Assembly (NCBI GenBank): GCA_964531695.1
Contig: CAZHEH010000007.1
Location: 34,121 to 98,120 of the forward strand
Direction of reading: 5' to 3'
DNA length: 64,000 bases
From: an uncultured Planctomycetaceae bacterium
GTDB lineage: Bacteria; Planctomycetota; Phycisphaerae; SM23-33
Made by a program: the position numbers and the translations under genes. The notes below the pieces were generated by a model, which saw only the letters and a program-made list of their open reading frames with translations, ran no database searches and was not told where the DNA came from. Shown here piece by piece: positions 1-54,174 of the stretch. How positions within the stretch are numbered: position 1 is the first letter of the stretch; each line of letters opens with the position of its first letter.

Positions 1-353
1 TCGACCGCGCGGATGTAGTTCACGCGCTGGGTGAAGGGGCTGGTGCCGAGCTTCTCGTCGTCGAGGATCTTGTAGCCCGCCTGCCCGCCGCTGGGCACCC
101 CGCTGCCCGCCAGCGTCATGCGGCAGGAGTCGACCTGCTCGACCGGAACCTGAACGGTCGTGCCGCCGTTGTTCAGTTCGTAGGGCACGTCCTGGTCGCG
201 CAGCTTGTCGACGACCCGGGCGGCCTCCTCCGTCGTCAGTCCGCCGTAAAGGATCGTCATCTTCGGCCGCGTCGCCCAGTGCCCCAGCAGCACCGCCGCC
301 CCCACGACCGCCAGCAGCACGGTCAGCAGGAGCACGCGGTGAACGACCGTCAT
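1..353 (-). CDS. fliF: Flagellar M-ring protein FliF, N-terminal part; the gene continues beyond the window start
   Basis: Minus-strand translation from ATG at 353 gives MTVVHRVLLLTVLLAVVGAAVLLGHWATRPKMTILYGGLTTEEAARVVDKLRDQDVPYELNNGGTTVQVP. This has an N-terminal TM helix and the typical FliF N-terminus. It is open to position 1 and lies directly downstream of fliE. Confidence 0.7.
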   Translation of the reverse strand, partial: MTVVHRVLLLTVLLAVVGAAVLLGHWATRPKMTILYGGLTTEEAARVVDKLRDQDVPYELNNGGTTVQVPVEQVDSCRMTLAGSGVPSGGQAGYKILDDEKLGTSPFTQRVNYIRAV

Positions 354-425
354 CTGCCGCCACGCCTCGCCGAGATTCCGAAGTATCTGAGCCACAATCC
401 GTCCTCACCGAATGGCCGCGGCGCC

Positions 426-734
426 CTAGACCTGCATGTTCAGCGTCTGCTTGTACGCCTCGATCATCTTGTTCCGCACGCCGACGAGCAGCTTGAAGCT
501 CATGTCGGCCTTGGCCATCGCCGCCACGGCCGGCAGCACGTCCTCGCTCTTGCCCGACAGCAGGTCCTTGACCGCCGCGCTCGAGGCGTGCTGGTCCTTG
601 TCCACGTTCTTCATGTACGTCTGGAGCGTGTCCTGGAAGCCGGGCTTGGCCGTCGGCTGCGCCCGTTGGGTGCCCTGAATTCCGGAAACGCCCGAAACCG
701 GGTTCGGGCCGCCGGCAATGGGGTTGATCGCCAT
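426..734 (-). CDS. fliE: Flagellar hook-basal body complex protein FliE
   Basis: 102-aa ORF with the FliE C-terminal signature (…SFKLLVGVRNKMIEAYKQTLNMQV). Operon order is flgB-flgC-fliE-fliF. Confidence 0.85.
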   Translation of the reverse strand: MAINPIAGGPNPVSGVSGIQGTQRAQPTAKPGFQDTLQTYMKNVDKDQHASSAAVKDLLSGKSEDVLPAVAAMAKADMSFKLLVGVRNKMIEAYKQTLNMQV

Positions 735-745
735 CTCGAATGCTC

Positions 746-1153
746 CTATCGCAACAGTTCCAACGCGTTGTCCACCGAGTCCTGGTATCTCTTGAGCACG
801 GCCGCGTTCGCCTGGTACGCCCGCGACGCGACCACGAGGTTCATCATCTCCGAGGGGATCGACACGTTCGGCATCGTGACATACCCATCGGCGTCGGCGT
901 CCGGGTGGCCCGGCATGCGGACGCGCTGGAGCGGGTTCTCCATGTCCGGACGGACGGTCTCGATCGTCACGCCGCTCGGGCCGTCGCCGCCGGCGCGGAG
1001 GACGACCTCCCTGCGGCGGTACGGGCCGCCGTCGGCGGTGCGCGTGGTGTGCGCGTTGGCGAGGTTCTCGGCGATAACCTGCATCCGCTGCGACTGCGCC
1101 CGCAGGCCCGAGACCGCAATGTCCACCGAACTGCCGACTCCGTTGACTGCCAT
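746..1153 (-). CDS. flgC: Flagellar basal-body rod protein FlgC
   Basis: From the internal Met MAVNGVGSSVDIAVSGLRAQSQRMQVIAENLANAHTTRT … MMNLVVASRAYQANAAVLKRYQDSVDNALELLR. Flg rod N- and C-terminal motifs are present. The upstream part of the track ORF is a high-GC extension. Confidence 0.85.
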   Translation of the reverse strand: MAVNGVGSSVDIAVSGLRAQSQRMQVIAENLANAHTTRTADGGPYRRREVVLRAGGDGPSGVTIETVRPDMENPLQRVRMPGHPDADADGYVTMPNVSIPSEMMNLVVASRAYQANAAVLKRYQDSVDNALELLR

Positions 1154-1175
1154 GGCTCTCGTCCCGTTCCCGCGC

Positions 1176-1538
1176 CTACCGCTGGGTCTGGATCGCGATT
1201 TCCATCTGGTCGTACACCTTGCCGAGCAGGCGCATGTAGGTCTTCCGGATCGCACTGTTCTTGATCATCTCACCGACTTCCCCGTCGAGGTCCACGTCGT
1301 TGCCGTTCGGGCCCACCGGCGTGTCCATCGGCCGCGTCACGTCGATCTCGAAATTCCGCAGCGTTTCGAGGTCTCCGTCCTCGACGGCCTGGGCGAGGAT
1401 CTTCTCGAACTCGACGGCCCGCCGCCGGAAGTCGGGCGTGTTCATGTTGGCGATGTTGTCCGCCAGCACCTTGCCCCGCATCCCGGTGGCGCGGAGGCCC
1501 GCCTCGATGTACTGAATCACGTTCCCGTCGCCGCCCAT
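1176..1538 (-). CDS. flgB: Flagellar basal-body rod protein FlgB
   Basis: MGGDGNVIQYIEAGLRATGMRGKVLADNIANMNTPDF…RKTYMRLLGKVYDQMEIAIQTQR. A GGAGAGAG RBS precedes the ATG. It overlaps the 3' end of the upstream regulator gene by about 20 nt. Confidence 0.8.
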   Translation of the reverse strand: MGGDGNVIQYIEAGLRATGMRGKVLADNIANMNTPDFRRRAVEFEKILAQAVEDGDLETLRNFEIDVTRPMDTPVGPNGNDVDLDGEVGEMIKNSAIRKTYMRLLGKVYDQMEIAIQTQR

Positions 1539-2923
1539 CGTCTCTCTCCCGCCTCGGCGAAGGCGTCGGGCGGCTCGAAGCCGTCGCGACGGTATCGCCG
1601 CAGCTTGTCCCGCAAGGTTCGGTCGGTGATGCCCAGCATCTCGGCGGCCTTGGCCTGATGGGCCTTGGTCCGCCGCAGCGCCTCGTAGATCGCGGAGCGT
1701 TCCAGCTCCGCCAGCGACAGCGTCGAAAGGTCCCGCGGCGCCGGGGCGCGGAGCTGCCGCCACAGCGACGGCACGCCCGCCAGCGAGAGCGTCTCGCCCT
1801 CGCCCAGCACCAGGGCCGTCCGCACGACGTTGCGGAGCTGCCTGACGTTGCCCGGCCAGGCGTACTTCTGGAACGCGTCCATCATCTCGGGCTCGAGCCG
1901 GGTGACCCGCCGCCCGACCTCGCCGGCGTGAAGGTTCACGAAATGCCACACCAGGGCCTGCAGGTCGCCCGTCCGCTCGCGCAGCGGCGGCATCCAAATC
2001 TCCAGCCCGCCCAGCCGGTAGTACAGGTCGCGCCGGAACGCGCCCTTCTCGACCTCCTCGGCGAGCTTGCGGTTCGACGTGCTGATCACCCGCACGTTGA
2101 CCTGGATCGGCTCGCTGCCGCCGACCCGCTCGAACCGCTGCTGCTCCAGGACCCGAAGCAACTCCGCCTGAAGCTGCGGGCTGGTCTCCGAAATCTCATC
2201 CAACAGCAGCGTGCCCCCGTGGGCCTGCTCGAAGCGCCCCTTGCGGCGGGCGTGCGCGCCGGTGAAGGCCCCGCGCTCGTGCCCGAACAGCTCGCTCTCC
2301 AGCAGCGTCTCGCTCATCGCCCCGCAGTTGACCGCCACGAACGGCCCCTCCGCACGCCGGCTGTGATGGTGAATCATCCGCGAGACCAGCTCCTTGCCCG
2401 TGCCGCTCTCGCCCGTGATCAGAACCGGCAGCGACGTGCCCGCCACCTTGCGGGCCACCGAGATCGTCTCCCGCAGCCGCGGGCTCTCACCCGCGATGTG
2501 AAAGGCCTGCCCCGCCTCGTCGCAGCCGACCGCCGCCATCGGCACCTCGTGCGACGGAACGTAGGCGTCCAGGACCCGCTCCAGGTCCTCGCGCCCCAGC
2601 GGCCGCTCCAGGTAATCCCGGCAGCCCTCCTGCATGGCCCGCACGGCCGTCTCGACCGACTCATCGCCGGCGATCATCACGACCGGTAGCTCCGGATCCT
2701 GCTCGCGGACCCGCTCCATCAGCTCGGCCCAATCGGCGGCGACCGGCGACAGGTCGATCAGCGCCAAGTCCCACGAGCGCCGCGGAAGCTGACGGCACCC
2801 CGCGGCCGTGTCCCGCGCCACCGTGCCGCGAACGCCGCGCGCCGCGAGCATCTCCAGCACCAGCCGCGTCGTTGGCGGGTCGTCGCACACGAACAGAACG
2901 TTCTGTACCGGTGTCTCGGGCAT
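1517..2923 (-). CDS. Sigma-54-dependent response regulator (receiver + AAA+ sigma-54 activator + Fis-type HTH), FleR/FlrC-like flagellar regulator
   Basis: Receiver Asp region, Walker A GESGTGKE, the GAFTGA sigma-54 interaction loop (ERGAFTGA) and a C-terminal HTH (AAEMLGITDRTLRDKLRRY). It is embedded in the flgB operon. Confidence 0.85.
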   Translation of the reverse strand: MPETPVQNVLFVCDDPPTTRLVLEMLAARGVRGTVARDTAAGCRQLPRRSWDLALIDLSPVAADWAELMERVREQDPELPVVMIAGDESVETAVRAMQEGCRDYLERPLGREDLERVLDAYVPSHEVPMAAVGCDEAGQAFHIAGESPRLRETISVARKVAGTSLPVLITGESGTGKELVSRMIHHHSRRAEGPFVAVNCGAMSETLLESELFGHERGAFTGAHARRKGRFEQAHGGTLLLDEISETSPQLQAELLRVLEQQRFERVGGSEPIQVNVRVISTSNRKLAEEVEKGAFRRDLYYRLGGLEIWMPPLRERTGDLQALVWHFVNLHAGEVGRRVTRLEPEMMDAFQKYAWPGNVRQLRNVVRTALVLGEGETLSLAGVPSLWRQLRAPAPRDLSTLSLAELERSAIYEALRRTKAHQAKAAEMLGITDRTLRDKLRRYRRDGFEPPDAFAEAGERRWAATGT

Positions 2924-3801
2924 CAGGCGCCTTCGTCCGCTTTCGCTTCGGTGGCCGAGGTCGATGCCGGTGTCGAGTCCGCGGCCGGGGCGGGCTCGCG
3001 CCTCACCGGCCCGATTGCGTCCACTTCCCGGAGGAACTCGCGCGGCCGCGTGGACTGCTCCCAGGCGATCAGCTCATCCTGCGTGCGGGCCGGCTCGGCC
3101 CAAGGGCTCTCGGCGTGCTCGGCCATGACCTGCTTGTAGGCGGCCCGCGCCGCGGCGGGGTCGCGGGTTTGCAGCGAGTTGCCCGTCTGGAACAGGATCC
3201 ACGCCTTGTCGGCCGGGCTCGGGTCGCGCCGCAGGGCGAGCTGGTAGAACACGGCCGCCGTGTCGAGGTGCCCGGCGCGGAAGAGCGTGTCCGCCAGCGC
3301 CAGCGGGTCCGCCACGCTGTCGGGCGGCACGCTCGTCCGGAGCGTCTCGAGCGTGGCCGCGTCGAGACCCGGCGCGGGGGCTTCCGCCGGTTCCGGCTCC
3401 GGCTCGGCCGGGTCGTCGGTCCCGCCGTCGGCCGTCGTGTCGGTCGGCTCCTCCGGCTCGGGCTCGGCATCCTTCGGCTTCGGGCGCTCCGCGCCCAGCC
3501 GCATCGCGCGGAGACGGCGCAGCGTCGCGGACAGGTCGCGGGCGTCCGCCTCGGTGGACTCCGCCGGCGCCGAAAAGCTCTCCCGCATCAGGTCGCGCAC
3601 GCCGATGTCGAGTTCGGGGTCCGCGGCGGCGTCGGCCTCGTCGGCGTCCCCGGCCGGGCGCGTGGTGGGGGCCGAGGCGGGCCCCGCCGCGCGTTCCGCC
3701 CCGCTCGCGGCCGTCGGGTCGGCCTCCGGCGCCTCCTGGGCCCACAGCGGCGAGGCCCAGGTCGAGAGAATCACCATGACCGTCACGAGGCGCGGCATCA
3801 T
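2923..3801 (-). CDS. Secreted TPR-like protein (signal peptide; acidic Pro/Glu-rich linker)
   Basis: Start at MMPRLVTVMVILSTWASPLWAQE (signal peptide). The C-terminal region has TPR-like helices (FYQLALRRDPSPADKAWILFQTGNSLQ). There is a 4-nt ATGA overlap with the upstream gene. Confidence 0.5.
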   Translation of the reverse strand: MMPRLVTVMVILSTWASPLWAQEAPEADPTAASGAERAAGPASAPTTRPAGDADEADAAADPELDIGVRDLMRESFSAPAESTEADARDLSATLRRLRAMRLGAERPKPKDAEPEPEEPTDTTADGGTDDPAEPEPEPAEAPAPGLDAATLETLRTSVPPDSVADPLALADTLFRAGHLDTAAVFYQLALRRDPSPADKAWILFQTGNSLQTRDPAAARAAYKQVMAEHAESPWAEPARTQDELIAWEQSTRPREFLREVDAIGPVRREPAPAADSTPASTSATEAKADEGA

Positions 3802-6359
3802 TCGGGCTTCTCCCCCGTCTTGGCGTCGAGCATGTCCGAGTAGGCCAGTGCGGCCTTCCGGTAGTCGTGTCGGAGGGCATAGGCGGCCCCGAGCAGTCCG
3901 AGGGCCCGCTCGCGGGCGTCCGGCCCGCTGTCGGCGTCCAGCACGCCCCGGGCCAGCGTAATCGTCTGGGCGGCCTCGCCCAGCTCCAGGCACGCCTCCG
4001 CCAGGTCGCACGCGGCGCCGTAGTACGCCTCACAGGGCGCCATCTTCTCCAGCACCTCGGTCAGGGCCTGCCGGGCGGCCTCGTGGTGGCCGGCGGCCCG
4101 GTGGCAGCGAGCGATCTCGATGCCGACACGGGCCCGGCTCTGGATGTCGCCGGCGGAGGCGACGTGCTCGCTCAGCCGCCGGACGCCGCGCTCGGGCAGG
4201 CCCATCTGGCGGTACATCCGCCCGAGCAGCAGCAGGTAGCGGGCCAGGCGCTCCGCCGGCAACGCGTCGACGTCCAAGCTCCGCAAGGTGCCCAGCGCCT
4301 GAACGGTCTTGCCCGTGTCCAGGTACAGTTCGGACAACGCCAGCGACACCGAGAGGTACTGCTCGCGCGACGGGTCGGTTCCCAGCGCCCGTCGCAGGTC
4401 CGCCTCGGCCAGCTCGGGGCGCCCCAGCTCTCGCCGGCTGAAGCCGCGGAGCAGATACGCCTCGGTCAGGGCCTCGTCGCCCTCGGCGGCCGTGCCGATG
4501 TACCGCGTCAGCCACTTGTCCGCCTTCTCGTGCAGCCCCTTGGCGTAATGGCACCGCCCGACGCCCAGCGCCGCGCGGGCCCGCGACTCGGCCGAGAGGT
4601 TCTGCGTCCAGAGCTTATGGAAGTCGGAGATGGCGTCGTTGTGGCGGCCTTGTCGCCGGTTGGCCTCGCCGAGCGCCAGGTAGACCTCGTCCTGGGCCTG
4701 GAAGTCCGGGTGCAGGTCCAGCAGGCGCTGGAGGTCGTTGCGGGCGCCCTCGTAGTTGGTCAGTTCCATGCGCAGCCGGGCGCAGCGGAGCAGCGCCTCC
4801 GGCGCCACGCGGTGCGCGTCGAACCGGCCCGCGATGAGCTGGTATTCCTTCATCGCCCCGAGCGTGTCGCCGGAGAGCTCCTGCACGACCGCCAAGGCGT
4901 AGCGCCCGAGCGGCCCGCGCGGGTCCCCCGCATCTCGCTGACGCAGGAAGAACCGCCGCCAGCACGAGTTCGCCTCCCGCACGAGCAGATCACGCGATTC
5001 CGACAGCGAGTCGAAGCCGGCCGGGTCGTAGATGTCGATCTGCTCGCCGGAGAAGCGCGCAATCAGCCCGGCCGCGCCCGAGATGACCTCGGCCACGCGC
5101 CCGTCCGACGCGCCTGAAGTGAAGACCGTCACCGCCCGTCGCCGGACTTCCGGGCGAACGTTGACCCATTGCACCTCGATCCCCGCCTGCGAGCCGAAAC
5201 GCGCCAGCAACTCATCCAGGTGCGCGCCGGCGGCCGTGACGGACCACGCCCGGCGCGTCTCGTCCGCGTCCCGCTGAACCTCCGGGCCGAGCAGGGCCCG
5301 GTCCAGCCGTTCGGCGCCCAACGCCAGGCGCTCCCGCAGCTCGGCGTCGGTCAGCCCGGCGAACGGATCCTTCCAGCGGGGCGCCCGCCACTGCACGGCC
5401 TCCTGCTGTCCGTACATGGACAGAACCTTCATCGCCAGCGCACGGGCGGCGAGGTAGTCGCAGTCCAGCTCCATCGGCAACGGCTCGCCGACCGCGCCGA
5501 GCGACGCCATCGCCAGATATGCCTTCGTCCGGCCGTGCAGGAACTGCCCGCCGGACAGGTCCATCTCCGCCAACTGATACCAGGACGCGGCCCGGACCAC
5601 CGGCGAGTCGCTCGACGTCCCCGCCCGCAAGAACTTTCTGCCCAAGGACTTGCGGCCGAGCTGCCGCAGGCAGTAGCCGCGGCGGAACGTCAGCACGTCC
5701 GCCACCAGCGAGTCCGCGGGCGTGCGGGTCGCCTTGTCCAGCAGATGCAGATAGCCGGAGAGGGCCAGCTCGTACTCGCCCCGACCCAGCGCCTTCTCGG
5801 CGCGGGCCCAGGACATGGACGCGGGCGCCGGCTCGCCCGGCTCCGAGGGCTCTTCGGGCGCGTCCGGCTGCGGTGCCGTCCCGGCCGCGACGGGAGCCGG
5901 CGTGGCGCCGCCGGGCAGGCCCCACACGAAGTGCCAGATCAGCACGAAGCCGATCACCGCGATCAGCACCGTGTTGATCAGCAGCACGCCCTGGATGAAC
6001 CTCGGGCGAAGCAGCGGGCTGCCGGCGGACAGGGCCGCCCCGGCGGGGGCCTGGGCCTGAGTCTTCTCGGCCTCAGCGGCTTCCCGCTGTTTCTCGGCCT
6101 CGGCCTGCTCGGTCTCCTGCTTGGCCTTCTTGGCCTGCAGGCGGGCCCGCTGACGCGCGATGATCTCCTGCAGCGAGGGCTGCTGGCCCTCGCCCTCTTG
6201 CGCGCCTTCGGCCGGGGCGCCGCCGTCGGCCGCCGCGTCCGCCGGAGCGTCCGGGGCGGCTTCGTTCATCGGCTCGGAGGGCGGCTCCGACTGCGGCGTG
6301 GACTCTTCGGCGTCGTCCGGCGCGTCGGGCTGGGGATTCTGGCTCTCTTCTTCGGCCAT
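3798..6359 (-). CDS. Large membrane-anchored TPR-repeat protein (acidic/coiled N-terminus, one TM helix, periplasmic TPR array), first gene of the sigma-54 flagellar operon
   Basis: 853 aa. N-terminal EAEKQREAAEAEK coiled segment, TM helix FIQGVLLINTVLIAVIGFVLIWHFVW and multiple TPR-like repeats. It is co-oriented and overlaps the downstream genes. Confidence 0.6.
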   Translation of the reverse strand: MAEEESQNPQPDAPDDAEESTPQSEPPSEPMNEAAPDAPADAAADGGAPAEGAQEGEGQQPSLQEIIARQRARLQAKKAKQETEQAEAEKQREAAEAEKTQAQAPAGAALSAGSPLLRPRFIQGVLLINTVLIAVIGFVLIWHFVWGLPGGATPAPVAAGTAPQPDAPEEPSEPGEPAPASMSWARAEKALGRGEYELALSGYLHLLDKATRTPADSLVADVLTFRRGYCLRQLGRKSLGRKFLRAGTSSDSPVVRAASWYQLAEMDLSGGQFLHGRTKAYLAMASLGAVGEPLPMELDCDYLAARALAMKVLSMYGQQEAVQWRAPRWKDPFAGLTDAELRERLALGAERLDRALLGPEVQRDADETRRAWSVTAAGAHLDELLARFGSQAGIEVQWVNVRPEVRRRAVTVFTSGASDGRVAEVISGAAGLIARFSGEQIDIYDPAGFDSLSESRDLLVREANSCWRRFFLRQRDAGDPRGPLGRYALAVVQELSGDTLGAMKEYQLIAGRFDAHRVAPEALLRCARLRMELTNYEGARNDLQRLLDLHPDFQAQDEVYLALGEANRRQGRHNDAISDFHKLWTQNLSAESRARAALGVGRCHYAKGLHEKADKWLTRYIGTAAEGDEALTEAYLLRGFSRRELGRPELAEADLRRALGTDPSREQYLSVSLALSELYLDTGKTVQALGTLRSLDVDALPAERLARYLLLLGRMYRQMGLPERGVRRLSEHVASAGDIQSRARVGIEIARCHRAAGHHEAARQALTEVLEKMAPCEAYYGAACDLAEACLELGEAAQTITLARGVLDADSGPDARERALGLLGAAYALRHDYRKAALAYSDMLDAKTGEKPE

Positions 6360-6442
6360 GCTTCTTCGAAGTTTCTCGGCGTATCCTGACTCTCAAAGGC
6401 CGTGCGCAAACAGCGCGTGCGCACAGCGCGTTGCTGAACCGG

Positions 6443-6458
6443 ATGCAACGGGTGTGCC
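6443..6458 (-). promoter_or_regulatory. Sigma-54 (RpoN) promoter TGGCAC-N5-TTGCA upstream of the flagellar operon
   Basis: Reverse complement of 6441-6460 is GTTGGCACACCCGTTGCATC, a perfect -24 GG / -12 GC consensus about 85 nt upstream of the start at 6359. Confidence 0.5.
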
Positions 6459-6616
6459 AACCTCAGAGAACGGCACACATGAGCCATCTAGGCATGCCCA
6501 GGAGCCGTATGCGTCAATATCTAAGATGTGCTCGGCCGTGTCCCCGAGCGCAGCGTCAGGATTCTTGCGCCCGCGGCGCTTGCTTTTCGGACACTCCGCC
6601 GTCCCGGCCGGGGGAT

Positions 6617-6630
6617 GTTCCACGTGGAAC
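6617..6630. promoter_or_regulatory. Perfect 14-bp palindrome GTTCCACGTGGAAC in the divergent intergenic region
   Basis: Read directly from the sequence. It lies between the divergently transcribed flagellar operon and the secreted-protein / ECF sigma operon. Confidence 0.35.
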
Positions 6631-6738
6631 ACCCCGTTATCGACGCGATTCTGCGCGCGTATAGGGAGGTAGTATGATGCTTGGGACGTGTTCGATGGAA
6701 CCGGGCCGGCCCGACGGCCGCCCCCAGGGAGACCTGCG

Positions 6739-7746
6739 ATGAAGCGGACGATTCTGATCAGTGCGATGCTGGCGATGTTGACCTGCCCGATGTTGGCGGA
6801 TGAGGCGGAGCCGGCCTATATCTCGGCCGACGCGGCCTGGGTGGTGCATTTCGACGCGGACGCCTGGGGCGAGACGAAGCTGGAGCAGGCCATCCTGGAC
6901 CAGCACCCCGAGGCGATTCCGAAGCTGGAGGAGTTCCGGGCGACCTTCGGCTTCGATCTGCGCGAGGACCTTCACGGCGTGACGCTGTACGGCAGGGGCT
7001 TCGAGCCCGGGCGGGGCGTGGCGATGTTCGACGTGGACGTCGATGAGGACCGCATTCTCGACCTGCTGCGCGAGAACGCGGGCTACGAAACGAGCGAGTA
7101 CGGCGACCGGACGATCCACCGGTGGATCGAGGAGTCGAAACCCCGCCATGGCGAGGAAGACGACGGCACGCGCTACGGGACGTTCGCGGCGTTCGACCTG
7201 GTGGTGGTCTCGCGCGACCTGGACGACCTCAAGGCCGCGCTCGACGTCATCGACGGCGAGGCCGAAAACGCCTCCGAGGCCGAGGAGCCCGTCCTGCCCG
7301 AGGCGCCGGACGGGGCGTTCCTCATCGCTCGGGCCCGCAACCTGGAACTGCCCGAGGGCGCCCGGCGGCCGCGGGCGGCGCTGCTGAAGAAGTGCGAGGA
7401 GCTGTCGATGACCCTTGGCGAGAAGGACGCGCAGGTCTACGTGAACATCGCCGCGGAGATGGAGACCGAGAAGGACGCCCGGCGCGTCACGAAGATGATC
7501 GAGGGCATGCAGGCGTTCGCCGAGATGGCGGCCGAGCATGCTCGCGCTCGGGCCGAGGACGACGACGGCGAGCCCGCCAAGACCCTGCCGGTTTGGATGA
7601 GCTCGCTGATGGAAGCCGAGATGAGCGGGGAGGGGACGAAGGTCGTGCTGGAGATGTCGATGCCGACCGAAGGACTGATGGAGATGGCGGAGAAGCTCCG
7701 AGAAGCCCACCATGGCAGGCGGCACGAAGCGGGCGAGCGTGAGTGA
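6739..7746 (+). CDS. Secreted acidic hypothetical protein (signal peptide)
   Basis: MKRTILISAMLAMLTCPMLADEAEP signal peptide. No recognisable catalytic motifs. It lies upstream of and overlaps the ECF sigma gene. Confidence 0.5.
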   Translation: MKRTILISAMLAMLTCPMLADEAEPAYISADAAWVVHFDADAWGETKLEQAILDQHPEAIPKLEEFRATFGFDLREDLHGVTLYGRGFEPGRGVAMFDVDVDEDRILDLLRENAGYETSEYGDRTIHRWIEESKPRHGEEDDGTRYGTFAAFDLVVVSRDLDDLKAALDVIDGEAENASEAEEPVLPEAPDGAFLIARARNLELPEGARRPRAALLKKCEELSMTLGEKDAQVYVNIAAEMETEKDARRVTKMIEGMQAFAEMAAEHARARAEDDDGEPAKTLPVWMSSLMEAEMSGEGTKVVLEMSMPTEGLMEMAEKLREAHHGRRHEAGERE

Positions 7747-8308
7747 CGAGCCGGACTCGACACCGCGCGAGAGGACGCGGAGCGCCGAGGAGCTGGCCCG
7801 GGATGCGCGGGCCGGCTCCGCGGACGCGTTCGCCGCGCTGGTCGAGCGGTTCCGTCCGCGCCTGAGGGCCTACCTCGGGCGCGGGGCCGGCCAGGAGGCC
7901 GAGGACCTGACGCAGGAGACCTTCCTGCGGGCCTACCAGAAGCTCCGGCAGTACGACCCGAGCCGCCCGTTCGCGCCGTGGCTCTATGCGGTGGCGCGGA
8001 GCGTGGCCGCCACGCAGGCCCGTCGCCGCCGGCCCGCCGCCGCGATGCCGGACGCGGGCCTCGCCGACGCCGCGCCCCAGCCGGGCGACGCCGTCGCGGC
8101 GGACGAGCAGCGGGCCGAGTTGTGGCGGCTTGCCCGCCGCCGGCTGAGTGAAGACCAATACCGGGCGCTCTGGCTGCGATACGCGCGCGACGCGGAAGTG
8201 GCCGAGATCGCCCGCGAGATGCGGCGGAGCCGACCGGCCGTGCGCGTGCTGCTGCACCGCGGCCGGAAGCGGCTCATCGACGCGGCCCGGACCGCCGGAA
8301 CCGCGTAG
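7712..8308 (+). CDS. ECF-type RNA polymerase sigma-70 family factor
   Basis: Region 2 (DLTQETFLRAYQKLRQYDPSRPFAPWLYAVARS) and region 4 (LSEDQYRALWLRYARDAEVAEIAREMRRSRPAVRVLLHRGRKRL). Confidence 0.8.
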   Translation: MAGGTKRASVSDEPDSTPRERTRSAEELARDARAGSADAFAALVERFRPRLRAYLGRGAGQEAEDLTQETFLRAYQKLRQYDPSRPFAPWLYAVARSVAATQARRRRPAAAMPDAGLADAAPQPGDAVAADEQRAELWRLARRRLSEDQYRALWLRYARDAEVAEIAREMRRSRPAVRVLLHRGRKRLIDAARTAGTA

Positions 8309-9989: not shown

Positions 9990-10805
9990 CTAGCGCCCGG
10001 ATTCGGCCTTCTCCGTCCGGCCGCGGACCTCGATGCGCTCGATGGACTCGGTCCGGCCGCTGGCGGGGTTGACCGCCGCCAGCACGCCGCACAGGCGCGG
10101 GTCGCCCTGGGCCACGTCGAACCGCGCCGGCATGGAGGTCGTCATGTACTGGAGCACGCGCTCTTTCTTGCGCCCGAGCACGCCGTCGTAGGGCCCGGTC
10201 ATGCCCACGTCCGAGATGTAGCCGGTGCCCTTGGGCAGAATCCGAGCGTCGGCCGTCGGGATGTGCGTGTGCGTGCCGAAGATCAAGCTCATCCGCCCGT
10301 CGAGGTACCAACCCATCGCGATCTTCTCGCTGCTGGCCTCCGCGTGGAAGTCCATCACGCGCATGATGACGTCGGAAGGCACCTCATTGAGGACGCTGTC
10401 CACGGCCGTGAAGGGCGAGTCCGTCTGCTTCATGAACATCTGACCCAACGCGGCCGTGACCGCCACTCGATGCCGCCCCGACTTGGTCGGCACGACGGTC
10501 CATCGTTTGCCCGCCGCCTTGGGCAGCAGGTTCGCCGGGCGGACGACGCGGTCCGACTCGCGCATCGTCGGGATGATCTCCTGCTTGCGGAAGCAGTGAT
10601 CCCCGAGCGTGACGACATCTACCCCGTAGCGGAGCAGCTTGTTGAAGATCTGCGGCGTCAGGCCGCTGCCGCCGGCGACGTTCTCCGCATTGCAGACGAC
10701 CAGCTCGATGGATCGCTCGGCGATCAGCTCCTCCAGATGGTCCGAGAGCACGCCTCGACCGGGCGGGCCCACAACGTCCCCGATGCACAGTATGTTCACC
10801 GCCAT
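9990..10805 (-). CDS. ymdB: YmdB-like metallophosphoesterase (2',3'-cyclic-nucleotide phosphodiesterase family, TIGR00282-like)
   Basis: MAVNILCIGDVVGPPGR…VVCNAENVAGGSGLTP…GDHCF…GTHTHIPTAD metallophosphatase motifs typical of YmdB. Confidence 0.8.
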   Translation of the reverse strand: MAVNILCIGDVVGPPGRGVLSDHLEELIAERSIELVVCNAENVAGGSGLTPQIFNKLLRYGVDVVTLGDHCFRKQEIIPTMRESDRVVRPANLLPKAAGKRWTVVPTKSGRHRVAVTAALGQMFMKQTDSPFTAVDSVLNEVPSDVIMRVMDFHAEASSEKIAMGWYLDGRMSLIFGTHTHIPTADARILPKGTGYISDVGMTGPYDGVLGRKKERVLQYMTTSMPARFDVAQGDPRLCGVLAAVNPASGRTESIERIEVRGRTEKAESGR

Positions 10806-10900
10806 GCGACCGCGTCGCTTCCTAGCCCCCGCTACCGCGGCATTGTAGCCGCAACGAACCGCCAGACCAACCCCGTCGCTCGAATCCGGCCGGGCCTGCG

Positions 10901-12058
10901 TCAGTCCGTGTCCCGCGTCAGGATCTGAAGGTACGCGTCGTATGCGTAGACGCGGTCGCGCTGCCGCCCGGTGGTCTCGCGCAGAATGCCCGCTTGCTGG
11001 AGCGTGTCAATGGCCTTGCCCGCCGTGGGCTTGGTCGTATCCAGCAGCTCGACGGCCGCGGGCAGCGTCAGCACCGGTCGGGTGGCCAGGCGCTCCAACA
11101 GCCGGATCGCGCTGAGCGTCGCCCGGCGGTCCTCCACGAGCGTCCGCCGATCCCGCGTCAGCAGGGCGAACAGCCGCTGGGCCGTGGCGACCGCGTCGTC
11201 GGCCGCCTCGCGAACGCACTCCAGGTAATAGACCGTCCATCCCTCCCAGTCGCCTTCCGTCCGCACGCCCGTGAGGCGACGATAGTACTCCCGCTGGCGA
11301 TGCCGGAACGCCACGCTCAGGTACAGCAGCGGCGCGTCGAGCAAGCCCCAGTGCTCCAGCAGCAGCGCGATCAGCAGCCGCCCGATCCGGCCGTTGCCGT
11401 CGAGGAACGGGTGGATCGTCTCGAACTGCACGTGGGCCAGCCCGGCCCGGATCAGCGGCGGCAGCGGGTCGTCCGCGTCTATCCATCGCTCCAGCGAGGA
11501 CATCGCCGCCGGCACCTCCTCCGGCGGCGGGGGCACGAAGGCCGCGTTGCCGGGGCGCCTGCCCCCGACCCAGTTCTGCGAGCGGCGAACCTCACCCGGC
11601 CGCTTCTGGACGCCCCGGGCCCCGGCCATGAGGCGATCGTGGGCCCGGCAAAGCAGCCGCGTGCTCAGCGGCAATCCCCGCGGGCGGGCCATCTCGCGCC
11701 GTGCGTACGACAGCGCCTCGACGTAGTTGCAGACCTCCTCCACGTCCTCCGGCCGGTCGGTCTGCTCCGTCGCCTCGAAGGCCAGCACGTCGCGAAGCGT
11801 GGCCTGCGTGCCCTCGATCTGGGAGGAGATCACGGCCTCCTTGCGGACGAAGCCGTAGAGGAACCAGTCGATGCTAGGCACCATCGAGCCGGCCACCGAG
11901 AGCCGCCCCAGCGCGGCCTGTGCTTCCGTAAGCAGGTCCGCAAGCTCGTCGTCCACGACCAGCGGTGGCTTCGTGGGCGGAAGGGGATGGGGCACGAACG
12001 TCCGGACGGTCTCGCCGCCCGCCGCGCTCGTTCGGTATGCTCCGGTCTGACGCGCCAT
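10901..12058 (-). CDS. Fic family protein (AMPylase fold) with C-terminal winged HTH
   Basis: Canonical Fic motif HPFLDGNGRIGR, N-terminal Fic_N-like region and a C-terminal wHTH (GKAIDTLQQAGILRETTG). Confidence 0.85.
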   Translation of the reverse strand: MARQTGAYRTSAAGGETVRTFVPHPLPPTKPPLVVDDELADLLTEAQAALGRLSVAGSMVPSIDWFLYGFVRKEAVISSQIEGTQATLRDVLAFEATEQTDRPEDVEEVCNYVEALSYARREMARPRGLPLSTRLLCRAHDRLMAGARGVQKRPGEVRRSQNWVGGRRPGNAAFVPPPPEEVPAAMSSLERWIDADDPLPPLIRAGLAHVQFETIHPFLDGNGRIGRLLIALLLEHWGLLDAPLLYLSVAFRHRQREYYRRLTGVRTEGDWEGWTVYYLECVREAADDAVATAQRLFALLTRDRRTLVEDRRATLSAIRLLERLATRPVLTLPAAVELLDTTKPTAGKAIDTLQQAGILRETTGRQRDRVYAYDAYLQILTRDTD

Positions 12059-12091
12059 GTCCAGTCAAGGGCCTTCACCTGTAAGCCATGC

Positions 12092-12142: not shown

Positions 12143-12379
12143 AAGAAGTCCGCGTCGGCCGTCCCCGCAGCCCCCACGGCCGGGGGACAAGGCCCACATT
12201 GCCCGCGCGACGCGGATGTGCGCACAGGCGTTCCTCCCCTTCGCGCGGCTCGGCCGATTTTTCGTCATTTTGCTTAAACCCTATTCAGGCAAGACTTGCA
12301 CTCGTTCCGGCCCGGCCGTGTGCCGCGTCTGTGCGCGCGCCACGCGGCGCGCGGCGGGGGAGGTCGAGGAGACGACGCA

Positions 12380-14023
12380 ATGGCCTTCGACCTGACGAAC
12401 TTCCAAGACCCCGACCTCAGCAGCGACTACGTCCAGTACCTCGTCGAGCACGAGGCGCCGGATCGGGCCCGCCGGCTCGCCCGGGCTTGGGACTACTTCG
12501 CCAACCCGACCCGCCCGCTGAGCCGGACGCTCGCCGACGGCGGCGGAACCAGCGCCCGCCCGTACGTGCAGGCGCAGGAGCAGGGCCTCCCCGCACGCAT
12601 CACCGGCCTCAACCGACTCGGATCGCGGACCCGCGAGACGAACCTGAGCCGCAAGGAAGTCGTCATCGAGAACGACATCGCCTGGCGGGTTCAGACGATG
12701 GTGGATTTCCTCTTCGGGCGTCCGGTGCGGGTGCGTTCGCTCGCGGCGGACGCGAATCTGGCGGCGACGATCGAGCAGGTCGTCGCGACGCTGCTGGAAG
12801 ACAGCGGCGGCGTCGGCTTCTGCCAGGAAGCGGCCCTGTACGGGGCCGTATACGGCTTCGTGGACATCGCTCTCCGGACCCCGGCCGGCGGATCCGCCGT
12901 GTCCGGCCCCGCCCTGCCCAGCGCGGCGGGTCGCGGCGCGGGCGGTCCCCTTCCCGCCGACGCGCCACGCCGGCCGGGGCATCTCAACAACAACGCGCCC
13001 GACGCGGGCGCACAGACCGAGAATGCGGCAGGACCGCCCGGGCGAGCCCGGCCTGAACCGCGACTACAGCGGGCCCTGCAAGCGGCCCGCATGATCCAAC
13101 TGGAGGCCCTGGAGGCCCCCCGGGTCCTGCCCATTCTCGCCGAGGACGACTGCCGCCGCATCCGCTACTGGGTGCAGGTCTACCGCAAGCGTCCGCCGCG
13201 GCTGGCCCGCTCGCGGCGCCCGTGGTTCCTGCCGGGGCGCTCGCACGCCGCCCGCCCCGAGGAGGTCGAGGTCGTCGAGATTCTCGGCCCGACCTGGTGG
13301 CAGCGCTACGAGGACCGCCGCCTGGCGGCCGAGGGCCCCAACGCTCTCGGGCGGCTGCCCGTCGTGCACGTGCAGAACGTCGCCCAGCCGGGGCGCTACG
13401 AGGGGCTCAGCGACGTGCTGCCGCTGATTCCGCTTCAGGATGAGCTGAACACGCGGCTGAGCGACCGGGCGAGCCGCGTGACGTTCCAGTCGTTCAAGAT
13501 GTACCTGGCCAAGGGCATCGACGACTTCCTCGAGCGGCCGATCGCGCCGGGACAGATGTGGGCGACGCACAACCTCGACGCCCGCATCGAGGAGTTCGGC
13601 TCGGACACCGGCTCGCCCAGCGAGGACGCCCACATCGAGCAGGTCCGCCGGGCGATGGACAAGGTCTCCGGCGTCACGCCGCTGGCGGCGGGGCTCATCG
13701 AGGGCAACGTCGGCCACCTCACCAGCGCCACGGCGCTGAAGGTCGTCCTGAGCGGCCTGCTGGCCCGCACGGCCCGCAAGCGTCTGACGTACGGCGCGGG
13801 TCTGGCCGGCGTGGTCGAGCTGGCGCTGGCGTGGCTGGACCGCACCGGCGCGCTGGCCACCCGCCCCGACGACCGGCGGATCGAGATCGACTGGCCCGGC
13901 GTCCTGCCGGAGGATGAGTCCGAGCGGCTCCGCAACGCGGTGGTCAAGTCCCAGCTCGGCGTCCCGGCCGGGCGCATCCTGGCCGAGCTCGGTTACGGCC
14001 CGACCCCCAACGACGTGCATTGA
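12380..14023 (+). CDS. Phage portal protein (probable)
   Basis: 547 aa from MAFDLTNFQDPDLSSDYVQYLVEHEA. It has a portal-like size and an N-terminal R-rich/DYF region, and it sits in the portal-scaffold-capsid gene order. Confidence 0.55.
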   Translation: MAFDLTNFQDPDLSSDYVQYLVEHEAPDRARRLARAWDYFANPTRPLSRTLADGGGTSARPYVQAQEQGLPARITGLNRLGSRTRETNLSRKEVVIENDIAWRVQTMVDFLFGRPVRVRSLAADANLAATIEQVVATLLEDSGGVGFCQEAALYGAVYGFVDIALRTPAGGSAVSGPALPSAAGRGAGGPLPADAPRRPGHLNNNAPDAGAQTENAAGPPGRARPEPRLQRALQAARMIQLEALEAPRVLPILAEDDCRRIRYWVQVYRKRPPRLARSRRPWFLPGRSHAARPEEVEVVEILGPTWWQRYEDRRLAAEGPNALGRLPVVHVQNVAQPGRYEGLSDVLPLIPLQDELNTRLSDRASRVTFQSFKMYLAKGIDDFLERPIAPGQMWATHNLDARIEEFGSDTGSPSEDAHIEQVRRAMDKVSGVTPLAAGLIEGNVGHLTSATALKVVLSGLLARTARKRLTYGAGLAGVVELALAWLDRTGALATRPDDRRIEIDWPGVLPEDESERLRNAVVKSQLGVPAGRILAELGYGPTPNDVH

Positions 14024-45508: not shown

Positions 45509-47092
45509 CTACGCCAACTCGCCGATCCGCTCGCGGCGAATGGCCTCGGCCGCCGCTTCGTCGATGATCCGCAGGCGGGCCGGTCCTCCCTCGGCCGGGC
45601 AGACCACCACGGCCGCCAGGGTCCGCGAGAGGGGCCACGGCTCCAAGCCCATCGCCAGCAGTTCGCCGACGGCCTCGGCGGCGTCCGCCGCCCGCACCAC
45701 CGCCACCACCGAAGCGCCTTCGCGAGCCGCCTCGAACGCCTCCAGCGCCGTACCGGGGTCGCGCAGGTCCTCGACGCAGACCAGATCCGCGTCCTGCCCC
45801 ATGGCCGCGGACATCGCCTCGGCATATGCCAGCCCGTTCCGCCCGCCGGTCGGGACGTCGTCGGCCTCCTCGCCGGCCACCCCCGCCTGGCGCCCGAGCA
45901 CCAGCACGCTGCACCCCGCGGCCGCCGCTTCGCCCGCCAGCGAGCACAGCAGGGCCCGGCGCCCGCTGCGCGCCGGCCCGGCCAGAACGACCCAAACGCC
46001 GCCGCCGGTCAGCAGCTCCATGAGCCGCGCGCGGTCCACCGCGCTCAGAGCGGCTCGTGCGCCGGCCCCGTCCATCGGGCGGAGGCGCAGAACCAGGCGC
46101 GGGCCCCGAGCCGTCGGGCATGTCGCCACGGCCGCGTAATAGGACGTATCCCCGTGACGTACTTCCATCATTCCCTCGGCCGGTCGCTCCAGCGCCTCGG
46201 CGTCCAGGCCGGCGCGCCCCGCCAGCCGTTCCAGAATCGCCCGGTCCAGCCCCGCGGGCAGACGGGCGGCGAAGCCCGGCTTCTCCCGCAGCACGCCATC
46301 CACGCGAAGGCGGAGCGACAGCCCCTCTTCGCGCGGCTCGAAGTGTACGGCCGTGGCGTGCTTGGCCAGGGCATCCGCCAGCACCGCCTCGATGACCTGG
46401 TCGGCCCGAGCCGGGCAGGCGTCGTCGGCCTCCGGCTCGTCGGCCTCGTGGGGCCCGGCCTCGTTGAGTTCGGCCTCTTGGGGATGGGCCTCCGGGGTAG
46501 TCCTGGGCTCCGGCTCGGGCACCGGCCGAAGCTCGACCTCCAGCTCGTCAAACGCCGGCTCCGCTTCCGGCATTGGGCTCGGCCGCGGCTCGTCTGCCCC
46601 GGACGGCTCCGGGCCGGCCTCGTGTGCGGCCGGCGTTTCGGGCTCGGGCTCCGCCTCGGGCTGCGGCTCGGGCTCGTAGCGGCCCTCATCCGGCTGCGGA
46701 TCGATCGGCTCGGGCTCGACCGGCTCGCGCCCATCCGGCCGGGCCGGCTCGGAATCCGCCACGTCCGGCTCCCACGACTCCGCCTCGCTCGGCGGCTCGC
46801 CCGCCGGCCGACTGGCGATCCGCCGGGCCAGCAGCTTCCGCGCCCGGCGGGCCGATGCCTCTTCGTCCTCCGGCTCGGACGCGGGCTCGACCCTCGCCCC
46901 GGCCATAAGCTCCGCCAGGTCCACGCCGCGGTCTCGGAGGAACCCCACGAGCGATTGCTCGGAGATTCGGATGGCCCCGTCCGGCATGCGACGCACCGGC
47001 AGCCAGCCCTTCTGGATCCACTCGACCACCGTGCCGGGCGTCTGCCCGAGCAACTCGGCGATTTGGTAAGTCGTGAAGGTACGCTGGGACAT
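45509..47092 (-). CDS. Fusion protein: N-terminal MerR/excisionase-type HTH, Pro/Glu-rich linker, then a C-terminal GspE/PilB N-domain-like region with a degenerate Walker A (pseudo-ATPase)
   Basis: MSQRTFTTYQIAELLGQTPGTVVEWIQKGWLPVRRMPDGAIRIS (HTH). About 200 aa of PE-rich low complexity. Then VIEAVLADALAKHATAVHFEPREEGLSLRLRVDGVL (T2SSE_N-like) and GVWVVLAGPARSGRRALLCSLA, which is GxxxxGRR rather than GKT. Confidence 0.5.
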   Translation of the reverse strand: MSQRTFTTYQIAELLGQTPGTVVEWIQKGWLPVRRMPDGAIRISEQSLVGFLRDRGVDLAELMAGARVEPASEPEDEEASARRARKLLARRIASRPAGEPPSEAESWEPDVADSEPARPDGREPVEPEPIDPQPDEGRYEPEPQPEAEPEPETPAAHEAGPEPSGADEPRPSPMPEAEPAFDELEVELRPVPEPEPRTTPEAHPQEAELNEAGPHEADEPEADDACPARADQVIEAVLADALAKHATAVHFEPREEGLSLRLRVDGVLREKPGFAARLPAGLDRAILERLAGRAGLDAEALERPAEGMMEVRHGDTSYYAAVATCPTARGPRLVLRLRPMDGAGARAALSAVDRARLMELLTGGGVWVVLAGPARSGRRALLCSLAGEAAAAGCSVLVLGRQAGVAGEEADDVPTGGRNGLAYAEAMSAAMGQDADLVCVEDLRDPGTALEAFEAAREGASVVAVVRAADAAEAVGELLAMGLEPWPLSRTLAAVVVCPAEGGPARLRIIDEAAAEAIRRERIGELA

Positions 47093-47256
47093 CGAGGGCC
47101 TCCGGTCTCCCGTCGGGGGCATTGTCCCACCCCCCCGCCGATCCGTCAACCGGGCCCACGGCCGGGCTTGTAAGGGGGCGAGGCAGCGGCTATGCTCGAT
47201 GTTTCGGCGCGGCGGGACAAGTCGTGCCGTCAACCCGAACGAGAAGGAACCTACCC

Positions 47257-48357
47257 ATGCGGATTGCGGTAATCGGCGGAGACGGGACCGGACCGGAAGT
47301 GGTGGCCGAGGGGCTGAAGGTGCTCCGGGCGGTCGCGGCGAAGGTCGGCTTCGAATACGAGACGAAGGACTTCAACGTCAGCGGCGATCGATACCTCGCC
47401 GCGGGCGGCGACCCGAACGTCGCCTCGATGCCTATCGTCAGCGAAGAGGAGATCGACGAGCTTCGCGGCTACGACGCGATCTACCTCGGCGCGGTCGGCC
47501 ACCCGGACATCGCCCCCGGCATCCTGGAGAAGGGCCTGCTGCTGCGGCTGCGCTTCGCGCTGGACCAGTACATCAACCTTCGCCCGGTGAAGCTCTACCC
47601 CGGCGTCGAGACCCCGCTGGCGGGCAAGGGCCCGGAGGACATCGACTTCGTCGTCGTCCGCGAGAACACCGAGGGGCTCTACACGGGCATGGGCGGCAAC
47701 CAGTACCAAGGCACCGCCAACGAGGTCGCCACGCAGGTGATGTGCAACACGCGCCACGGCGTGGAGCGGGCGATTCGCTACGCCTTCGAGCTGTGCAAGC
47801 GGCGGAACGACAAGGGGCGGCTGACGCTCGTCGGCAAGACGAACGTACTGACCTTCGCCCATGGGCTGTGGTACCGCGCCTTCTGCGAGATCGGCGAGGA
47901 ATACCCCGACATCGAGAAGGACTACAACCACGTCGACGCCTGCTGCATGTGGTTCGTCAAGAACCCCGAGTACTACGACACGATCGTCGTGTGTAACATG
48001 TTCGGGGACATCATCACGGACCTCGGCGCGATGATTCAGGGCGGAATGGGCGTGGCCGCGGGCGGGAACATCAACCCCTCCGGCGTGTCGATGTTCGAGC
48101 CCATCGGCGGCTCGGCGCCCAAGTACACCGGGCAGAACGTCATCAACCCGGTCGCGGCGATCGCCTCGCTGGCCATGCTGCTGCGCGAGACGGGGCAGAA
48201 CACGGGCGAAGCCAAACTCATCGACGCCGGCGACCGCGTCGAGGCCGCCATCATGGCCGTCACCCCCAAGATGGACAGCCAGTCCGCCAAGGGGATGGGC
48301 TACTCGACCACCGAGGTCGGCGACCTGGTCGCCCAGGCCGTGACGGACGCGGAATAG
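47257..48357 (+). CDS. Isocitrate / isopropylmalate dehydrogenase family enzyme (LeuB-like, 366 aa)
   Basis: MRIAVIGGDGTGPEV…NLRPV…GSAPKY motifs of the beta-decarboxylating dehydrogenase family. Confidence 0.75.
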   Translation: MRIAVIGGDGTGPEVVAEGLKVLRAVAAKVGFEYETKDFNVSGDRYLAAGGDPNVASMPIVSEEEIDELRGYDAIYLGAVGHPDIAPGILEKGLLLRLRFALDQYINLRPVKLYPGVETPLAGKGPEDIDFVVVRENTEGLYTGMGGNQYQGTANEVATQVMCNTRHGVERAIRYAFELCKRRNDKGRLTLVGKTNVLTFAHGLWYRAFCEIGEEYPDIEKDYNHVDACCMWFVKNPEYYDTIVVCNMFGDIITDLGAMIQGGMGVAAGGNINPSGVSMFEPIGGSAPKYTGQNVINPVAAIASLAMLLRETGQNTGEAKLIDAGDRVEAAIMAVTPKMDSQSAKGMGYSTTEVGDLVAQAVTDAE

Positions 48358-52556: not shown

Positions 52557-52573
52557 TTGCAAATCCTGTGCCG
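52557..52573 (-). promoter_or_regulatory. Sigma-54 promoter-like element GGCAC-N5-TTGCA upstream of the TPR-glycosyltransferase operon
   Basis: Reverse complement of 52557-52573 reads CGGCACAGGATTTGCAA (GG-N10-GC spacing is exact). Confidence 0.45.
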
Positions 52574-52730
52574 CTCGGCCGGATGACGTATTCCGCCGCG
52601 TTCGGCCCGCCCAAAGGCCGCACGGGCCGGGGCGGGGCCCCAAATTCCGACGTCGGCCGGAATTCCGGCCGCCGGCCGTCAAGATATCGTGCGCGTCTGC
52701 GCCAAAATGCTGTCCGGCCGGAATCGTCTT

Positions 52731-54152: not shown

Positions 54153-54174
54153 CGGACGGCTCCTTCCTGCCGCG

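Follow-up and report, generated by a model that had tools for sequence, protein, structure and literature searches.

Flagellar genes of Vibrio cholerae are controlled by two sigma-54 activators that act in series: FlrA turns on the class II genes, flrBC among them, and class III is in turn activated by FlrC (PMC12607845). A sigma-54 promoter drives the gene of the second activator along with MS-ring and export genes, and the genes for hook and rod belong to a later sigma-54 class (PMC12607845). The Pseudomonas route from FleQ to fleSR has the same design as that from FlrA to flrBC. A further precedent is FlbD of Caulobacter crescentus, an atypical-receiver, kinase-less activator that works with FliX and is encoded in the early MS-ring (fliF) operon; FlbD turns on later classes and acts as a repressor at the fliF promoter of its own operon, which depends on CtrA/sigma-73 and not on sigma-54. 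On the structural side, motor scaffolds of periplasmic, tetratricopeptide repeat (TPR)-rich proteins are found as PflA/PflB in Campylobacter and Helicobacter, as FlcA/FlcB in Borrelia, and as MotC/MotK in alpha-proteobacteria (PMC12222027, PMC13023049), with a spoke-and-rim arrangement in the case of PflA/PflB (PMC12222027). In Planctomycetota, for which sigma-54 promoters on basal-body and enhancer-binding protein (EBP) genes have been predicted genome-wide (PMC12316311), there has been virtually no study of how flagella are regulated or how the motor is built. Here we analyze a 64,000-nt stretch of planctomycete DNA (hereafter the window; G+C ~70%, with positions counted along the whole stretch) whose left end, 1–6459 on the minus strand, is a genuine flagellar operon kept across a group of uncultured planctomycetes.

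This region contains the promoter and the first seven genes of an "early" flagellar operon from a Phycisphaerae-type planctomycete, headed by two TPR genes (TPR1 and TPR2) and followed by an embedded sigma-54 activator and the genes for rod and MS-ring proteins. We propose an explanation that combines an early operon, a two-tier sigma-54 cascade, and a TPR motor scaffold, and as a whole we consider it reasonably probable. Several of its components are already known, including sigma-54 flagellar control in Planctomycetota (PMC12316311), cascades of two activators and embedded activators such as FlrC/FleR (PMC12607845), and TPR scaffolds, and the regulatory part alone would be a variation on well-known sigma-54 flagellar cascades. 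What appears to be new, as judged from sequence, is the overall combination: a TPR/N0/TPR family that heads an early operon, two apparently kinase-less activators with distinct conserved upstream elements, and a series of relatives in which one of these activators seems to erode.

A conserved flagellar operon headed by two TPR genes

All seven genes lie on the minus strand. TPR1 (3798–6359, 853 aa, with several TPR Pfam families above cut-off) is followed by TPR2 (2923–3801, ~292 aa, with a signal-peptide N-terminus, weak TPR matches, and a conserved block), the embedded sigma-54 activator (1517–2923, 468 aa, with Response_reg, Sigma54_activat, AAA_lid_14, HTH_8, and GAFTGA), the proximal-rod genes flgB (1176–1541, Pfam Flg_bb_rod, in an order kept in relatives) and flgC (746–1153, Pfam Flg_bb_rod and Flg_bbr_C), fliE (426–734, Pfam FliE, E 1.6e-20), and the 5′ part of the MS-ring gene fliF (1–395, Pfam YscJ_FliF), which is cut by the window edge after its first ~130 codons and may start either with the GTG at 395 or with an ATG further downstream. 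Adjacent genes overlap by 4, 1, and ~23 nt (including ATGA and TGATG overlaps) or are separated by gaps of at most ~30 nt, and TPR1 and TPR2 are translationally coupled via the ATGA overlap. Neither a sigma-70-like promoter nor a terminator-like site on the minus strand was found within 1–7000 of the window. Pfam matches and translations bear out the gene order given in a preliminary description of this DNA, which ran from an 853-aa anchored TPR protein and a secreted TPR protein through an activator with GAFTGA to flgB-flgC-fliE-fliF. The coordinates it gave to the operon, 1517–6458, do enclose TPR1, TPR2, and the activator, but flgB, flgC, fliE, and fliF lie outside them.

The same arrangement recurs in related genomes. 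Loci for comparison comprised a twin contig from ENA (L001), whose TPR1 is 98% identical to that of the window, further loci from exact look-ups of homologues, nine loci from a scan of GTDB species genomes (all Phycisphaerae or Planctomycetota metagenome-assembled genomes), and 23 loci from a metagenome scan. Gene order in these loci was mapped by tblastn, and TPR1 identity across the informative loci ranges from 29 to 54%. The order TPR1-TPR2-activator-flgB-flgC-fliE-fliF-fliG is present in every locus long enough to show it (~24 loci), with a single variant, L031, discussed below, and the TPR pair heads the flgB-fliF operon in all relatives that extend far enough. Beyond fliF, the L001 operon continues with fliG-fliH-fliI-fliJ, a gene for a 223-aa FlgY-like protein (X223), and motA-motB. 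A transcript of the operon would carry TPR1, TPR2, the NtrC-family activator, flgB, flgC, fliE, and fliF and, past the window edge, would proceed through fliG, fliH, fliI, fliJ, the FlgY/FlbB-like gene, motA, and motB.

This linkage bears on the possibility that the TPR proteins are envelope proteins of a general kind (Tol-Pal/YbgF-like or BamD-like) whose genes only happen to share the transcript and which play no part in motility. The best NCBIfam matches are to the TPR regions of YbgF, BamD, and PorW, as such a reading would have it, although all fall far below cut-offs. Strict linkage to the flagellar operon in every informative locus, at 29–54% identity, and translational coupling within the operon make the reading very improbable. 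The same linkage agrees with the earlier suggestion that the TPR proteins are lineage-specific.

An exact TGGCAC-N5-TTGCA sequence (TGGCACACCCGTTGCA, 6444–6459, minus strand) constitutes a predicted sigma-54 (−24/−12) promoter upstream of TPR1. It is the single match to this pattern in the window, where 0.01 would be expected by chance, and it is intergenic, oriented toward the operon, and 84 nt upstream of the TPR1 ATG (6359), with the GG and GC 10 nt apart within an extended consensus. The textbook element of the preliminary description is thus confirmed, one base away from the position reported for it (6443–6458). A TGGCA[CT]-N5-TTGC box lies 5′ of TPR1 in 12/12 lineages of the first set and in 19/19 informative metagenomic loci (two of the 19 carry TTGCG and were recovered with a relaxed score; loci whose contig ends within or just before the TPR1 coding region were left out of the count). 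In the 222 kb made up of the window and the first 15 loci, matches to the strict pattern are nearly confined to TPR1 promoters, the exceptions being minus-strand boxes in L004, L007, L010, and L011 that lie upstream of a second activator gene described below. Sigma-54 RNA polymerase would bind the 6444–6459(−) box and would need an AAA+ activator.

The embedded activator has a degenerate receiver

The embedded activator has the features of an NtrC-family EBP: an AAA+ domain (Sigma54_activat, PF00158, E 7.8e-69), AAA_lid_14 (PF25601), and a C-terminal Fis-type helix-turn-helix (HTH; HTH_8, PF02954), with GAFTGA, Walker A (GESGTGKE), and Walker B (LLLDEI) motifs all legible in the translation. 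It reaches none of the NCBIfam equivalog cut-offs, scoring 346.7 bits against a cut-off of 750 for FlbD (NF050807), 250 against 750 for FlgR (NF049963), and 374 against 559 for NtrC (TIGR01818), and an exact look-up of the protein returned no matching record.

Its receiver aligns with CheY and NtrC but does not conserve the residues expected of a phosphorylatable domain. In the window protein the DD pair and D57 are kept, T87 is replaced by A, and K109 is replaced by R (CheY numbering). Most orthologues have lost the acidic pair, with RR, HN, AP, AD, SD, or RD in its place; D57 is E in two lineages, K109 is P or S in some orthologues, and position 87 varies as well. No histidine kinase was found among the scanned neighboring open reading frames (ORFs), as the preliminary description had stated for the adjacent genes. 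The missing kinase is best explained if the receiver is a pseudo-receiver, which would make it probable that the embedded activator is controlled by protein contacts or by its abundance and not by a histidine kinase. One orthologue, on a JGI contig, is only 351 aa long and has no receiver. Together with L031, in which only the HTH is left, it completes a domain-loss series that leads from full length through loss of the receiver to the HTH alone.

These features set the locus apart from its closest regulatory counterparts. Unlike Vibrio and Pseudomonas, the window locus has no FlrB/FleS-type kinase, and its activator has a degenerate receiver. Unlike in Vibrio, the activator gene sits inside the flgB-fliF operon instead of in a two-gene operon of its own, and this operon also holds proximal-rod, stator, and two TPR genes. 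The likeness to Caulobacter FlbD is closer with respect to an atypical receiver, the absence of a kinase, and the position within an early MS-ring operon, and FlbD is among the best full-length NCBIfam matches of the embedded activator, although the protein is not an FlbD equivalog by the score given above. No fliX-like gene was identified.

A second activator suggests a two-tier cascade

Another sigma-54 activator gene, EBPup, shares the strand of the TPR1 promoter in ~20 loci and is located directly upstream of that promoter, which places the gene outside the sigma-54 unit. Its product has AAA+ and HTH_8 domains and no Pfam receiver. EBPup orthologues are 53–69% identical to one another and ~40% identical to the embedded activator. 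The HTH helix of EBPup (QRTRAAALLGITRATLHAKLKRY) is invariant within its orthogroup, as is the helix of the embedded activator (HQAKAAxLLGITDRTLREKLRRY) within its own, and the two are unlike each other.

The TPR1 promoter is accompanied by a conserved element (GCGCAAGAATCCTGACGC, motif GCGCAAAAAtCCTGACGC; 6553–6570, minus strand) that was located with a position weight matrix (PWM) and that we regard as a candidate enhancer, or upstream activating sequence. An upstream half (GAAAAGCAAGCGC, 6576–6588, minus strand), recognized by eye in an anchored 12-lineage alignment, forms a direct-repeat-like partner ~22 bp from the main motif, and similar units (GAAAAsCAgACGC) occur in L003, L004, L006, L009, L012, and L013. 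By PWM, the element starts 111–115 bp upstream of the −24 TGG in 7/12 training lineages; L004, where it was seen by eye at ~112 bp, is the eighth lineage. Among metagenomic loci outside the training set, it is found at 112–114 bp in L016, L018, L024, L026, L031, L034, and L036, and no match of at least 14 bits occurs away from TPR1 promoter regions in the ~400 kb scanned. Two other identities for this element were considered and rejected: a sigma-70 promoter, as there is no conserved −10 and no sigma-70-like match, and a terminator of EBPup, as the hairpin-like GCGCC-GCG-GGCGC is not kept in other lineages.

A different element marks a second sigma-54 promoter. In relatives, a fliK-flgD-flgE-PilZ-flgF/G operon is divergent from EBPup and has its own sigma-54 box on the minus strand (L004 179–194, L007 7670–7685, L010 176–191, L011 485–500). 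A palindrome (CGGAAGAnTCTTCCG) that is unlike the TPR1-promoter element lies ~110–125 bp upstream at this fliK promoter. The separate box and the different palindrome argue for two enhancer types and two activators. A search across the window found no copy of the palindrome, and the promoter region that would carry it is presumably past the right edge.

The variant locus L031 comes nearest to a natural deletion of the embedded activator. Of this protein only a 74-aa ORF with the HTH remains (5012–5233, plus strand), and EBPup, the −24/−12 box, and the element at 112 bp are all kept, which suggests that the ATPase of the embedded activator is not needed to fire the TPR1 promoter. In flagellar assembly generally, the MS ring, export apparatus, and proximal rod are built before the hook. 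Taken together, EBPup, the distinct elements, L031, the assembly order, and the Vibrio precedent favor a two-tier cascade of the FlrA-to-FlrC kind as the best-supported and most likely control logic. Under such a cascade, EBPup, whose gene most relatives carry just upstream and this genome probably carries elsewhere, would bind the element ~112 bp upstream of the −24 box and fire the early operon. The embedded activator would in this way be produced alongside the MS ring, rotor, and export ATPase, and it would then switch on the fliK-flgD-flgE hook/rod operon as the next class. It may also feed back on its own promoter, positively or negatively.

The preliminary description saw positive feedback here, in the form of a possible autoregulatory loop. 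In such a loop, binding of the embedded activator to the upstream element at its own promoter would render the early operon bistable and self-amplifying. The claim stands insofar as a sigma-54 promoter does precede the activator gene; no other activator gene is adjacent in the window genome and a few relatives, and self-activated EBP operons have been described for ZraSR and suggested for NtrBC (PMC12316311). As the main logic, however, the loop is at odds with the ~20 relatives in which EBPup adjoins the promoter and upstream element, with L031, which keeps both promoter and element despite an activator that is no more than an HTH stub, and with the two distinct upstream elements, which imply a division of labor between two activators. 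Pure self-activation would also have no starting input. We therefore regard the loop as unlikely.

Feedback of the opposite sign could act through a second conserved site. Just past the expected transcription start, a leader element (CTGTGCGCAC, 6417–6426) forms part of an inverted repeat, GTGCGCA-N9-TGCGCAC (6402–6424), and the whole (6402–6426, minus strand) spans roughly +9 to +33. Its offset from the TGG, +35, is the same in the window, L004, L006, and L007, and it has diverged in L009, L010, and L011. The repeat is able to form a hairpin, with folding z-scores that are not significant, and a known RNA was rejected as its identity on the same scores and for want of any Rfam match; it may be an operator or a 5′ stem-loop. 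In an FlbD-type arrangement, the embedded activator would bind the 6402–6426 repeat, shut down the early operon, and activate later classes. The fixed offset of the repeat in several lineages would suit such a role, as would the HTH-only remnant in L031, which could still bind DNA, and the place of FlbD among the best full-length NCBIfam matches. Conservation of the element is only moderate, however, and it may be a mere leader hairpin, and the FlbD equivalog score is far under its cut-off (347 vs. 750 bits), which leaves negative feedback of this type quite doubtful.

The gene neighborhood of the window suggests where the missing first-tier activator may be. Its hook cluster, at 52.7–64 kb on the minus strand, is parted from the early operon by mostly housekeeping genes, and from the arrangement in L007 and L015 we infer that EBPup, fliK, and flgD lie just past the right edge. 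Upstream of and divergent from the operon, 6736–8308 on the plus strand encodes a 336-aa protein with no family match, overlapping an extracytoplasmic function (ECF)-type sigma factor (7712–8308). This neighborhood is found only in the window and its twin L001, which points to a lineage-specific rearrangement that displaced the EBPup gene.

TPR1 and TPR2 as candidate motor scaffold proteins

TPR1 belongs to a large family. Word-index searches with a single sequence or a profile found only 6–7 relatives; an exhaustive HMM search found hundreds, with 462 cluster representatives at E ≤ 1e-30 and at least 150 full-length representatives below 1e-148, and the family as a whole amounts to hundreds of 50%-identity clusters. 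None of 10 representatives sampled across the ranking carried a name, and organisms were likewise absent from the look-up. Cluster numbers, nameless representatives, and locus linkage together indicate that the TPR genes form a sizeable, unannotated, flagellum-linked family.

An AlphaFold2 model of TPR1 built from a six-sequence alignment (mean pLDDT 79, above 85 at residues 180–840) predicts a disordered acidic N-terminus, a helix at 63–99 with the PSLQEIIARQRARL motif, a hydrophobic membrane helix at 121–146, a periplasmic TPR-like domain at 184–315, an alpha/beta domain at 360–444, and a TPR superhelix at 452–840. The membrane helix is flanked by arginines on its N-terminal side and by an acidic, Pro-rich linker on its C-terminal side, a charge distribution that suggests a bitopic protein with its N-terminus inside and its C-terminus outside. 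When excised and modeled on its own (pLDDT 88), the middle domain superposes on secretin-N0/STN structures, with scores of 8.9 for the FecR-type anti-sigma structure 4m0h, 8.6 for the FecA signaling domain, 8.5 for DotD, 8.1 for PilQ, and 7.7 for GspD N0; no Pfam STN or FecR match was found in TPR1 at the sequence level. The N0/STN fold is a module for ring building and periplasmic contact. As in secretin N0, the STN domain of TonB transducers, and FecR/PupR, the domain would be periplasmic, and the bitopic layout is FecR-like. Unlike in FecR/PupR, the STN-fold domain of TPR1 sits between TPR arrays and there is no conserved partner ECF sigma factor.

The FecR-like layout raises the possibility that TPR1 is a trans-envelope sensor that serves as an assembly checkpoint, with the STN/N0 domain and TPR arrays docking on the basal body as it forms and its state being relayed, through the membrane helix and cytoplasmic tail, to the kinase-less activator encoded two genes downstream. 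If true, this would be a FecR-like signaling route with a sigma-54 activator in the place of an ECF sigma factor. A bitopic TPR1 with a conserved cytoplasmic motif (PSLQEIIAxQRxxL, in ~8 lineages) and an activator with a pseudo-receiver and no kinase would both fit. The tail and motif are missing, however, in about five lineages (L009, L010, L011, L013, and the JGI contig), and among the four tail-less lineages with a readable activator, L009–L011 have it at full length and only the JGI contig is without the receiver. Co-loss of the TPR1 motif and the activator receiver was accordingly rejected (L010 and L011 have no motif yet keep the receiver), and a motif that does not track the receiver weakens the case for a signaling role of the tail. 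TPR1 also differs from FecR-type anti-sigma factors: Pfam detects no N-terminal anti-sigma domain in it, the tail is variable or absent, and an ECF sigma gene is adjacent in no locus but the window and L001. Structural proteins that form rings, such as secretins and DotD, have the N0 fold just as typically. On balance, we give the checkpoint only a slim chance.

TPR2 appears to be secreted. Its N-terminus (MMPRLVTVMVILSTWASPLWA|QE) resembles a signal peptide and is followed by a short conserved helix, a Pro/acidic low-complexity linker, and a C-terminal TPR-like block of about two TPRs that is kept in eight orthologues. TPR matches are weak (TPR_14, 23.4 bits vs. a cut-off of 23.5), and a TPR2 orthologue follows TPR1 in every locus long enough.

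A periplasmic TPR pair with one anchored member, encoded with stator genes and a FlgY-like gene beside fliJ, recalls the Pfl, Flc, and Mot scaffolds. TPR1 is PflB-like in being anchored and ~800 aa in length, and TPR2 is secreted. An N0/STN-fold domain, not described for PflB, is inserted in TPR1, and TPR2, which is far smaller than PflA, has, to judge by its sequence, no room for the PflA beta-sandwich domain. Unlike in the Pfl, Flc, and Mot systems, the TPR genes lead an early operon. Searches of the PDB with TPR1, by sequence profile and by whole-chain Foldseek, returned only generic or designed TPR proteins; PflA and PflB are absent from the profile results, and the C. jejuni scaffold chain 9hmf_L ranks 36th in the Foldseek list (TM 0.20–0.24). 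The anchored periplasmic layout of PflA/PflB is thus shared, but no similarity beyond generic TPR was found. The preliminary statement that the TPR proteins have no counterpart in model flagellar operons holds for E. coli and Salmonella and fails elsewhere, where PflA/PflB, FlcA/FlcB, and MotC/MotK are known scaffolds of this kind (PMC12222027, PMC13023049).

The gene for the 223-aa protein lies between fliJ and motA, past the left edge of the window (L001 12478–13149, plus strand). Its product combines an N-terminal hydrophobic (membrane) helix with a coiled coil and a C-terminal region, and is probably a homologue of the E-ring proteins FlgY/FlbB/MotE, although its profile found nothing meaningful in the PDB. 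Members of the FlgY/FlbB/MotE family have an MgtE_N ARM-like domain and an N-terminal membrane helix or signal peptide, typically adjoin fliJ/fliK, and partner with TPR proteins such as PflA, FlcB, MotC, and MotK (PMC13023049). Since the TPR genes are tied to MS-ring, stator, and FlgY-like genes, and since E-ring proteins pair with TPR partners, TPR1 and TPR2 are most likely periplasmic structural accessories of the motor that would form a scaffold around the rod, E-ring, and stators and would act in the manner of PflA/PflB, FlcA/FlcB, and MotC/MotK. If they are scaffold parts, they would represent an independent case of TPR recruitment around the ancient E-ring and stator ring, with a bearing on the evolution of high-torque or lineage-specific motors.

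Several observations weigh against the combined explanation. Neither rpoN nor EBPup was seen in the 64-kb window, and EBPup is not adjacent to the operon in L019–L021, L030, and L038. As L019–L021 have no upstream motif either, the wiring is not uniform. The upstream-element PWM was trained on the same class of sites that it then recovers and is partly circular. An attempt to assign elements to activators by covariation of HTH and site failed because both HTHs are invariant, and sequence does not decide which activator binds which element. As for the scaffold, its role is argued from context and analogy: generic TPR features aside, TPR1 does not resemble PflB (Foldseek TM ~0.2, no sequence match), and MgtE_N (PF03448) is weakly matched in 3/7 orthologues of the 223-aa protein, with a best E of 0.003. 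The locus nevertheless offers conserved, testable wiring in the form of two sigma-54 promoters, two upstream elements, and two kinase-less activators.

Other features of the window

The second flagellar cluster (52731–63999, minus strand) contains flgE (62452–63999), a gene for a 375-aa PilZ-domain protein (61314–62441), flgF/G (60607–61320), flgH (58148–58801), flgI (57023–58147), flgK (54175–56145), and a flgL-like gene (52731–54218). A PilZ gene also lies between flgE and flgF/G in L007 and L015, and the protein may be a c-di-GMP brake or associated with the stator. Between the stop of the flgL-like gene (52731) and the GTG of a TPR-glycosyltransferase gene (~52491) is a second, near-consensus sigma-54 box (CGGCACAGGATTTGCA, 52558–52573, minus strand), with a perfect 16-bp palindrome (GGCCGGAATTCCGGCC, 52655–52670; 0.00 expected) ~90 bp upstream. 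Box and palindrome may represent a sigma-54 promoter with its own enhancer for genes of the flagellin-glycosylation type (49435–52491).

Between the two flagellar regions, 45509–47371 on the minus strand encodes a 620-aa protein with an unusual pairing of HTH_17 and T2SSE (a type II/IV secretion ATPase), with a strand and frame call that is uncertain given an overlapping plus-strand ORF. Closer to the early operon, an SPP1-type phage portal gene (12278–14023, plus strand) lies beside a Fic/DOC gene (10901–12064, minus strand) and a gene for a YmdB-like phosphoesterase (9990–11006, minus strand), and the segment 9990–14023 may be a prophage remnant.

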